NCBI GenBank assembly: GCA_963924565.1
Contig: OZ004607.1
Span: 30,132,001-30,196,000, forward strand
Length of the DNA stretch: 64,000 bases
Source of the DNA: Ascidiella aspersa
Lineage: Eukaryota
Reading direction: 5' to 3'
Below, piece after piece: positions 3,773 through 6,700 of the stretch (the stretch's first letter is position 1; each line of letters opens with the position of its first letter). A program made the translations under genes and the position numbers. The notes beneath the pieces are model-generated. The model was not told the DNA's origin, ran no database searches, and was given only the letters and a program-made list of their open reading frames with translations.

Positions 3773-6700
3773 TCACACTTTTCTTTCGTAGGCGATCAGC
3801 TCGTAATCAAGTGGACTAAACACAGCCCCCACTGCGCCCGCGTCCAGCTTTGGCATTTCACCCGGTTTTGCCTCGAACCTGAACCTCTGGACCATAGAAG
3901 TTAGAAAGAGAAAGAGCTCCATCTTTGCCAGCTGCTCTCCTAGGCAGAATCGGGGACCCACTGAGAAGGGAATCACGTATTTGGACTTGACGAAGTTGCC
4001 CTTCTCGTCGATGTGTCGGTCCGGGTTAAACTTGTCAGGTTGGTCGAACAGGTTCGGGTCGTTGTGAACAGCCCAGATATTTGGGGTTACCTGTACAGGT
4101 AGATGGTTCAAGGTTTGTAATGTATTTATCCAAACTATTCATTGCATATATAAGCATCATTATTTAAAAAAAGGTTACGCGGAGCTAGCGGTTTGCTTTA
4201 TAATGTGCCCCAAAAGGTTGTTTTTGAATTTATTGGTATAAATTAAACACTTTCAGTCCTGATTAGTTTAAGTTTGCTCACTGACTTTCCGAATCAAGAA
4301 CTGTGTTCTCAATAGTTAATGGCTTACCGTCACAAAATTTTACACTAAGAAGCCGTTTACTTACCGTTGTGCCCTTTTTTATCTTGTATCCATAGATTTC
4401 GGCGTCCTCAGAGGCACAATGAGGAACCGACAATGGAATAAGTGTGCGGAATCGTCCAATCTCGTGGATAAAGGCGCTGCAGTAAGGCATCTTTTCCTTC
4501 ATCGAAAAAGAAGGGCGGCCCTCGTCACCTTAAGATATAAGAAAAGCAGTTAGCCAAAAAATATTTATCAACCAATATACGAAGCATAACGACCACAACG
4601 CAAATTCCCCTAAACTAAACCATACGTTAAACAGAACTTCAATGGTACTATCGAGGCCATTATCCAACACTGTTGTTATATTGTGTAGTCCCAGTTGGTT
4701 ATCATAAATTCAATAGATTTGTTGTTTAAACGAATTTATAAAATAGAGGCTTATAGGTACCAACGACGTCGATAATCTCTTTGTACAATTTCTCTTGTAT
4801 CTGTGGATAGTGAAGAAGACAGAGCAGCGACCATCGCAATGTGCTAGAAGTCGTCTCTGTCCCGGCCTCAAACAGGTCTCGCATGTATTGCATAAGTTGT
4901 AGTTTCTAAAAAATAAAAGTTTCAGCCCTTGATCATAACAAAGTTTATACTTAAATCAATAATGGGAACTTGCGGCCCGCAGAACGATAATATGAGCCAT
5001 ACGCTGGCGCCTATACGAACGAATACCGTGACGTGTAAACAAGTTAATCGCAAAATTAGTTCATCAAGTTGTATCTGTAAATCTAGCAACATAAAGAGCA
5101 CTGTGGCCTAGCGACTTGATTACTAAGTGTCAGAAATATAGATAGAAAATTTAATATGTACATCATGATCTTTTAACTAAACAATATAAAGTTTTATAAG
5201 CCGAAGGGCGCAATGTCCACATGGGGAAAGTGCTGACGATTTCTTTAGAGAGTTCATTCAGTGTTTAGGGAATTCAAATAAAAACAACTTGCATGGATTT
5301 ATATCGGTAAATTTAGGCCCCTAAAGAGTTATACTAACAGTGCGTAAGTTTGAATGCCAAGTTTCACAAAGCTGTACGAGGTTAAAAATTAATTTGTGGC
5401 CTAAATGTTAAATTAGAGGACGCAGTATTGAATGAAGTGGGAATGATGCAAATAAGCAGTAATTATGTATTTTCACATGGAAAAATTTGAAAAAAGCTAA
5501 AATGTAACGTACGGTAAAGGTGTCCGTTCCTTTCTTCATTTCCACCAAAAAGGCATCGATGAAATCTCGAACATTGTCGGGATCCAGACTCTCGTTGTGT
5601 TCGTCGACCAGCACTTCAAACTTGTCTGGCGTTTTTAATGAATACAAGTTTATTATCAGACATAGGCTAACAAAAAAAGTCCCTTTGTAAATGTACATTA
5701 TACGATAAAAGCACACAATTGGAGAACATTTTTATATTTGAATAGATATTAATAAGAATATCAAAGCCCATACAGAAGTAGGTATCATTTTGAACGTTTC
5801 GAATAACTCTTTATTCATTTTCAACATTATTCGAAACGTTCAAAATGATACCTACTTCTGTATGGGCTTTGATAGTCTTATTACGTCTTACTACAACCTC
5901 CAACCATTGTGCTCCAATGAATAGATATTAATACACGGGGGTTAGCTAAGTTACTTTGCAATATTTTCTTGGACATTTGGATCGAACCAAAACATTACAG
6001 CACTTTTACGACTTACCAATCCATGCTTTCAATTCGATCCTGAGTTCTTGCATCACACCAGAAAACGGTGGAACATTCTCCAGCCAAGGAACGAATGTTA
6101 AGATCGTGAAACACGTAAGTATGCGAGGGTTGCTGTTCCTGTATTGCATTATTCCCCACCGTTAAAGTAAGTATGTGTGCTGAAAAGTTTTCTGAATTAC
6201 GTAGCTCATTTTCATTGTGTTTTTTTTTTTGTTTTATGTACATTTTGTAGGCATTTGTTTAAAGAACCGGAAATTTTTTTATGGCGGAACAACAGGAAAA
6301 GGTGGTATTTTGGGATATAAACGTTAGGGCTTAACGAAAATAGATATAATAATCCATTGCAAACAATATTTTTTTATATTTTATCATATAAAACGGTAAA
6401 AAATATTTTAGTCGCTCGTAAAATCTTTCTAGAAGAGAAATCATAATTTTCAATAACATAATTTTGTCGTATGTCATGATTAGGGCGAATATTTTTTGAC
6501 TTGTCAAAAAAAGTCAAAATTTTGTCAAAATTTACACGTTAGGTCAAAATTTGTCAAAAATTTGTAAAGTCAAAATCAAATAAAAATGCACATAAATCGT
6601 TTACAAAGTTAAAAAAAATATATAGTTAGCTTTTTAAAATTCGTCATTCAGTTGTTTTGAAATTTATCGTTCAATTTCATCAAAAAAATTTAGTTTTGAT

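Follow-up and report, generated by a model that had tools for sequence, protein, structure and literature searches.

Penelope-like elements (PLEs) generally carry a tail of 30 to 40 bp and occur as inverted, truncated copies (PMC8557442, PMC8969392). In the PLEs of Adineta vaga, the first codons lie within the pLTR and the tail, the latter being optional and 31 bp long; inverted repeats in head-to-head arrangement, with palindromes at their junctions, are abundant (PMC3846280). The minimal hammerheads of PLEs are reported to have a U3-A8 core variant, an extra base after position 9, G10.1-C11.1 and palindromic positions 15.2-16.2. They have also been described with a long helix II and a very short helix I, and in metazoans, pairs on opposite strands, 100 to 700 bp apart, were noted (PMC4209133). 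Naiads lack the canonical hammerhead (PMC8557442), and animal non-LTR retrozymes have been proposed to be non-autonomous PLE derivatives (bioRxiv 10.64898/2026.07.22.740005). Poseidon_Ac of Anolis carolinensis (PAc) cleaves and extends both target strands and has been modeled as a dimer. Its RT uses two start sites that bound the tail, with no difference between strands, copies uncleaved RNA and primes in vitro without target homology (PMC11167929). The origin of the tandem and inverted structures of PLEs is stated to be unresolved (PMC8557442, PMC11167929).

The architecture of head-to-head PLE palindromes with tails is already known from this literature. Here, we describe a genuine family of young mini-insertions derived from PLEs; they behave like PLE ends and are not autonomous PLEs. 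Among the top-ranked papers listed by a literature search, mostly outside subscription titles, none was devoted to head-to-head or solo mini-palindromes with a fixed center. The window (the whole 64,000-nt stretch of Ascidiella aspersa DNA that was analyzed) contains two palindromic insertions of about 170 bp, with one-sided tails, TSDs of variable length, junction microhomology and opposite orientations of a central segment, the "loop." Copy 1 is flanked by 16-bp TSDs (left, 5739 to 5754; right, 5918 to 5933) that match without mismatch, and the final 5 nt of the left TSD overlap the arm. The long arm (5750 to 5827, minus strand) and the short arm (5827 to 5883, plus strand) overlap by 1 nt at 5827, and a 34-nt tail (5884 to 5917, plus strand) is present at a single end. 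Copy 2 has 14-bp TSDs (left, 49354 to 49367; right, 49541 to 49554), likewise without mismatch, with the final 3 nt of the left TSD overlapping the arm. Its short arm (49365 to 49431, minus strand) is followed, with a 2-nt overlap at 49430 to 49431, by the long arm (49430 to 49509, plus strand) and, again at a single end, by a 31-nt tail (49510 to 49540, plus strand) that is A/C rich (21 of the last 30 nt).

As inverted pairs, 5750 to 5806 and 5827 to 5883 in copy 1 match over 57 nt at 98% with a 20-nt spacer, and 49365 to 49431 and 49443 to 49509 in copy 2 match over 67 nt at 97% with an 11-nt spacer. These arms are the two longest among the 145 inverted pairs in the window that were at least 14 nt long and separated by at most 1,500 nt. 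The copies are 87% identical over 174 alignment columns. An exact repeat of at least 14 nt within 10 nt of both ends was found for random 180-nt intervals in 21 of 20,000 trials. An initial annotation of this DNA had reported the long inverted arms, the one-sided tail, the separate TSDs and the doubling of the left TSD end as the start of the arm, and all of these were confirmed. For a fixed junction, the chance of the 5-nt and 3-nt arm-side microhomologies is 0.003 and 0.029, respectively. The overlaps at the centers of copy 1 (1 nt) and copy 2 (2 nt) are at chance level (0.29 and 0.09).

Copy 1 is intronic: it sits between two exons (about 5482 to 5640 and 5982 to 6149) of a P450 gene on the minus strand. 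No empty site for copy 1 was found, since its intron flanks gave no translated match at the paralogous CYP exons with which they were compared (about 16500 to 17160 and 35420 to 36080). The window has a GC content of about 38% and contains a cytochrome P450 gene cluster; most of the best matches to a P450 exon were Ciona and Clavelina proteins, at 57 to 62% identity. A large diverged duplication (12071 to 21222 versus 30684 to 39482, also 3747 to 4907 and 21303 to 22075; 72 to 89% identity) contains CYP2-like P450 paralogs, with both orientations represented. Other repeats are a head-to-tail duplication of about 275 nt (59104 to 59375 versus 59379 to 59660; 75% identity), an A-rich tandem repeat with 42- to 45-nt units (60296 to 60479) and a family of diverged, internally repeated segments in intronic or intergenic DNA (9976 to 12320 and 22915 to 23999; 65 to 78% identity). 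Exon translations at about 60600 to 61800 (minus strand) resemble an aldehyde dehydrogenase of the methylmalonate-semialdehyde type. Local MITEs with 8-bp TSDs, which the initial annotation had mentioned, were recovered: three elements have TIRs and a perfect 8-bp TSD (19615 to 20103, 26533 to 27236 and 42380 to 42879), compared with none in each of five shuffles. Judging by TSD length, we take them to be hAT-like. The first of them is made up of short internal palindromic repeats that also occur near 36270 and 44200. The second is enclosed by a TIR pair at 26152 to 27342 with a 7-nt AT-rich flanking repeat, and the two are possibly nested MITEs.

When read tail-ward, all four arms of copies 1 and 2 mapped onto one 111-nt monomer, which corresponds to 49430 to 49540. 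In copy 1, the left arm runs from monomer position 78 back to 1, and the right arm runs from 22 through 78 to the end of the tail. In copy 2, the left arm runs from 80 back to 14, and the right arm runs from 1 through 80 to the end of the tail. The "loop" is thus simply monomer sequence retained in one arm and missing from the other, and it comprises the 5′ half of the hammerhead-like motif described below. With the tail on the right both times, this segment has minus-strand orientation in copy 1 but plus-strand orientation in copy 2, and the short arm begins at position 22 in copy 1 versus 14 in copy 2. This agrees with the earlier description of a central segment flipped relative to the tail, with different fold-back points. 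The complete arm is the left one in copy 1 and the right one in copy 2. At two sites (39 and 72), copy-specific bases are mirrored in both arms of copies 1 and 2. The outer ends of arms and tails fall into two clusters, 31 to 34 nt apart.

A scan of both strands (128 kb) for minimal hammerhead cores gave two hits, at 49433 (plus strand) and 5824 (minus strand), both within the copies, and 20 shuffled controls gave a mean of 0.9 loose U3-A8 hits and no strict hits. Each of the two palindromes contains just one complete hammerhead-like motif. In copy 1, the U3-A8 minimal motif (5793 to 5824, minus strand, core positions 3 to 17) is carried by the long arm. In copy 2, it spans 49433 to 49464 (plus strand), with core nucleotides at 49433 to 49439, an extra U at 49440, a 6-bp helix II at 49441 to 49456, GAAA at 49457 to 49460 and a predicted cut after 49464. 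In addition to U3-A8 and the extra U after position 9, the motif has G10.1-C11.1 and palindromic 15.2-16.2; helix I is merely 2 to 3 bp, and helix III is absent. When the monomer and the hammerhead dimer were folded as RNA, the minimum-energy structure differed from the active hammerhead fold, an outcome that we count neither for nor against the motif. No Rfam match reached the gathering score anywhere in the window. With copy 2 and E values of up to 10, hammerhead families were absent from the 61 sub-threshold matches, which were mostly miRNA hairpin models, as a result of the hairpin shape.

An open frame of 37 codons spans the monomer, tail included (49430 to 49540, plus strand). Helix II begins at an in-frame ATG (49439), a putative PLE ORF start, and the cut is predicted 26 nt downstream of this ATG. 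The long arm of copy 1 also includes this ORF start. The 37-codon open frame by itself is weak evidence (P = 0.08). Among the four arms, five of eight variable sites are synonymous third positions (P = 0.01 for all changes and 0.08 for transitions). The offsets of the tail from the ATG are +69 to +75 and +102.

The motif and the open frame are additions to the initial annotation, as is a third copy (about 45481 to 45577, minus strand). Copy 3 is an older, 5′-truncated, single-arm monomer with a tail, at 81 to 84% identity, and has a 3-nt gap in the frame. It lacks the inverted arm, and the palindrome is not obligatory. Since 594 of 20,000 random position sets reached a comparable match, its possible decayed TSD (45468 to 45480 and 45578 to 45590; 13 bp, 10 of 13 identical) is suggestive. 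Searching the window with nhmmer revealed no copies beyond these three (one match had an E value of 9.6).

A phmmer search with the 37-aa frame against 1.84 billion representatives gave three hits. Two of these, P0003 and P0004, were chance matches to repetitive proteins with at most 20 residues aligned. The other, P0002, is a 90-aa database singleton from a 3,411-nt contig. It aligned with the antisense arm frame at 22 positions and then with the sense frame at 24, and on this basis it is probably an erroneous gene prediction spanning a further palindrome of the same family, one that is open in the antisense and sense frames alike. As read approximately from codons, its antisense arm reaches position 1 to 3, its sense arm starts no later than position 7, and both outer ends lie at about 83 to 84, apparently without a tail. 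The "loop" segment is retained on both arms. A change at position 35 in both arms would, again judging from codons, give the cleavage triplet GUC, and three further changes are confined to the antisense arm. Word-index searches scored zero of one candidate for the copy 1 frame against longer proteins and returned P0002 itself alone when it was compared with proteins of near length. A protein atlas search gave no usable match, and a 23-nt arm pattern had no match in bacterial and archaeal genomes.

Palindromes of the family are known from two DNA copies (copies 1 and 2) and one translation (P0002). Their centers differ in all three, giving three junction types. The initial annotation held that the palindrome is built anew at each insertion, and both the copy-specific variants found in both arms and the third junction type of P0002 argue for this view. 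The complete arm has the same inner end, within about 2 nt, in three of three palindromes (for P0002, from the translation). This shared end does not coincide with the predicted cut site but lies upstream of the hammerhead core, at a distance of 3 nt. It suggests that the RNA is short and has a defined start, that RT stops strongly there or that the master copy was palindromic. By eye, the first 8 nt of the monomer (49430 to 49437) are complementary at seven of eight positions to 49463 to 49470, around the predicted cut. This pairing is an alternative to helix I and may be linked to the fixed inner end.

The unit is very probably the 3′-terminal pLTR plus tail of a Penelope-like retroelement, inserted without the RT/GIY-YIG body and either trans-mobilized or extremely 5′ truncated. 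Like PLE pLTRs, it has a minimal hammerhead-like motif, a tail at one end (31 to 34 nt, compared with the published 30 to 40 nt) and an ATG at helix II. PLE features are also seen in the head-to-head, 5′-truncated inverted copies with variable TSDs (16, 14 and possibly 13 bp). These data support the retro-type (TPRT-like) origin suggested in the initial annotation, and the hammerhead-like motif, the ATG/cut-site geometry and the 31- to 34-nt tail strengthen its proposal of Penelope-like affinity. Because no RT or endonuclease partner was found, the PLE assignment leans on RNA and junction anatomy. The absence of Rfam hammerhead matches and the 2- to 3-bp helix I also tell against it. Of the 16 ORFs of at least 120 aa in the window, 13 were compared with Pfam, as was the 37-aa frame; the only matches were to P450, none of them from the 37-aa frame, and no RT or GIY-YIG ORF was found. 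Protein searches with short queries found no full-length relative. Autonomous EN+ PLEs (Penelope/Poseidon, Neptune, Nematis) have one ORF with RT and GIY-YIG, whereas the copies here are at most 170 bp and have 37 codons. The canonical hammerhead is absent from Naiad/Chlamys PLEs, whereas a PLE-type minimal motif is present here. The tandem array of non-LTR retrozymes is absent at all three loci, and the layout is head-to-head.

We infer, with moderate confidence, that each insertion consists of two head-to-head cDNAs made from opposite target strands and joined, with one of them trimmed. A dimer of the PLE protein would cut both target strands, at sites 14 to 16 nt apart, and both target 3′-OH ends would prime RT on the element RNA, starting at about monomer position 78 to 84 or at the tail end at about 111 to 112. 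Both cDNAs would extend head-to-head toward a shared 5′ limit at position 1 and would be joined with a 1- to 2-nt overlap, one cDNA being short by a few to about 21 nt. The cDNA that stays complete would set the apparent loop orientation, and the start sites used would set the presence or absence of a tail. Of these elements, two-strand cleavage and extension and the two starts bounding the tail come from the literature; the anatomy, TSDs, junctions and motif geometry were observed here. The tailless outer ends of P0002 at about 83 to 84 are expected when both primers use the inner start, and copy 3 was counted for the model as a plain single-arm insertion. Joining of two cDNAs would cover both orientations, tailless palindromes and single-arm copies with no added steps. 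Against it stand the chance-level center overlaps and the arm-side microhomology of 5 and 3 nt, the latter being also compatible with a strand ending there by annealing. More tentatively, a discrete non-autonomous PLE RNA of about 111 nt with a fixed 5′ end, comprising hammerhead, ORF start and tail as the minimal cis unit, may be inserted as pairs of molecules by a PLE protein complex that is dimeric, which would produce the head-to-head mini-palindromes. If so, loop orientation would record the target strand whose cDNA was kept, and a genome-wide census would report in vivo on the second-strand step of PLE transposition.

The main rival keeps the PLE origin but invokes fold-back, which the initial annotation had proposed to occur during insertion; we consider this possible but doubtful. 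A cDNA primed at the tail would fold back, prime itself at the 5′ limit of the template and anneal to the other target strand at about position 78 to 80; for copy 1, either a later inversion between the arms or fold-back of the other strand would be needed. Self-priming has already been proposed for head-to-head PLE palindromes (PMC3846280). Fold-back predicts that one arm reaches position 1 and that the other is shortened, as is always so here, and it accounts for the copy-specific bases common to both arms. It also yields the structure of copy 2 directly, and the confinement of significant microhomology to the arm side fits it better than it fits the joining of two cDNAs. The proposal fares less well with copy 1, and so for one of the two copies, where a second primer or a later inversion would have to be added. 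Spacers flanked by long inverted arms are known to invert. Moreover, the stop 31 to 34 nt short of the tail end needs a reason, and position 84 or so is also the outer end of the sense arm in P0002. The arms of copy 2 differ at two synonymous sites and the TSD pairs of both copies at 0 of 30 nt, which slightly, if weakly, favors two templates. The second part of the earlier proposal, resolution of a closed cDNA hairpin into flip and flop isomers, is unlikely. Such resolution is seen at parvovirus or poxvirus ends, and off-center opening of the hairpin followed by trimming could produce variable junctions. However, exact reverse complements are expected, and it is not supported as stated because flipping the center of copy 2 in silico did not reproduce copy 1, a 7-nt gap being left at the junction, and because P0002 has the "loop" on both arms. 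The three palindromes have three junctions, not two isomers, and copy 3 has no hairpin.

Even less likely is a palindromic master that was transcribed and reverse transcribed whole and later lost part of its center on one side. Perfect palindromes tend toward one-sided erosion of the center, the fixed inner end would be the center of the master, and P0002 resembles a near-perfect palindrome; however, the one-sided deletions would have to extend to the identical base each time, variants mirrored in both arms would require repeated arm conversion, and the outer arm ends cluster at 78 to 84. It is very improbable that the loop orientation of one copy is an assembly error. With short k-mers, arms of 57 to 67 nt can leave spacer orientation ambiguous, but the distance from unique flank to spacer is about 58 to 67 nt, inside one short read. 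The junction difference also exceeds mere orientation, and P0002 is a third form. The least probable reading is that the copies are MITEs, some other DNA transposon or hairpin genes of miRNA type. It would fit the long inverted arms and the sub-threshold Rfam miRNA matches, but none of the latter reached the gathering score, and the reading is largely refuted by TSD length (16, 14 and perhaps 13 bp, compared with 8 bp for the real MITEs of the window), by the asymmetric tail outside the arms and by single-armed copy 3. The hammerhead/ATG geometry likewise speaks against it. The initial annotation was correct that this is not a plain MITE, as the tail lies outside the arms and TSD length varies (16 versus 14 bp).

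The value of the family is that it offers a compact way to test how palindromes of PLEs arise. Full-length inverted PLE copies are long and hard to assemble, whereas the mini-copies fit into one read, retain both TSDs and reveal the central join along with the two priming sites. Should the family prove abundant, counts of orientations, junctions and arm differences would separate joining of two cDNAs from fold-back. Mini-copies of this kind can easily be mistaken for MITEs or miRNA hairpins or, like P0002, called as false genes.

In the twin priming of L1, cDNA synthesis starts from two target 3′ ends, with microhomology at the inner one, and the product has an inverted 5′ part and a join with a short overlap. 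The arms made by twin priming copy different parts of the RNA, whereas both arms here copy one shared stretch, so that two RNAs or two passes are needed. With the EN+ PLEs Pen2a_Av and Pen3a_Av, the insertions have in common a head-to-head inverted pLTR, a junction palindrome, an optional tail at one end, initial ORF codons encoded in pLTR and tail, variable TSDs and an inverted copy that is shorter than the direct one (PMC3846280). Unlike in Adineta, there are here two partial, adjacent arms only, within about 170 bp, and the complete arm can be either one. The unit is 111 nt long, compared with pLTRs of 193 to 218 bp in Adineta, and the TSDs are 14 to 16 bp versus 8 to 10 bp (PMC3846280).

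The U3-A8 hammerhead of Schistosoma Cercyon resembles the motif in its core variant, the extra base between 9 and 10.1, G10.1-C11.1, palindromic 15.2-16.2 and the absence of helix III (PMC4209133). Compared with metazoan PLE hammerheads, the motif differs in its 6-bp helix II, its 2- to 3-bp helix I and the single complete motif per palindrome. Animal non-LTR retrozymes are likewise short, non-coding, hammerhead-bearing, pLTR-related and dependent on PLE enzymes, but they are described as head-to-tail tandem repeats or monomers, whereas the copies here are head-to-head with a tail and long TSDs (bioRxiv 10.64898/2026.07.22.740005). PAc differs from the family in having C3-G8 instead of U3-A8 and in a site at 111 to 118; the tail is nearer the ATG here (+69 to +75 and +102). 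PAc priming, as described in vitro, uses no homology, in contrast to the 3- to 5-nt arm-side microhomology here, and the ORF body is absent from our copies (PMC11167929). PAc also shares several features with the family. Its ORF starts at hammerhead stem II, 26 nt before the cut site, the ATG follows core positions 3 and 8, and an AC-rich tail lies between the RT start sites; its template is the uncleaved RNA, and the copies here span the predicted cut site (PMC11167929).
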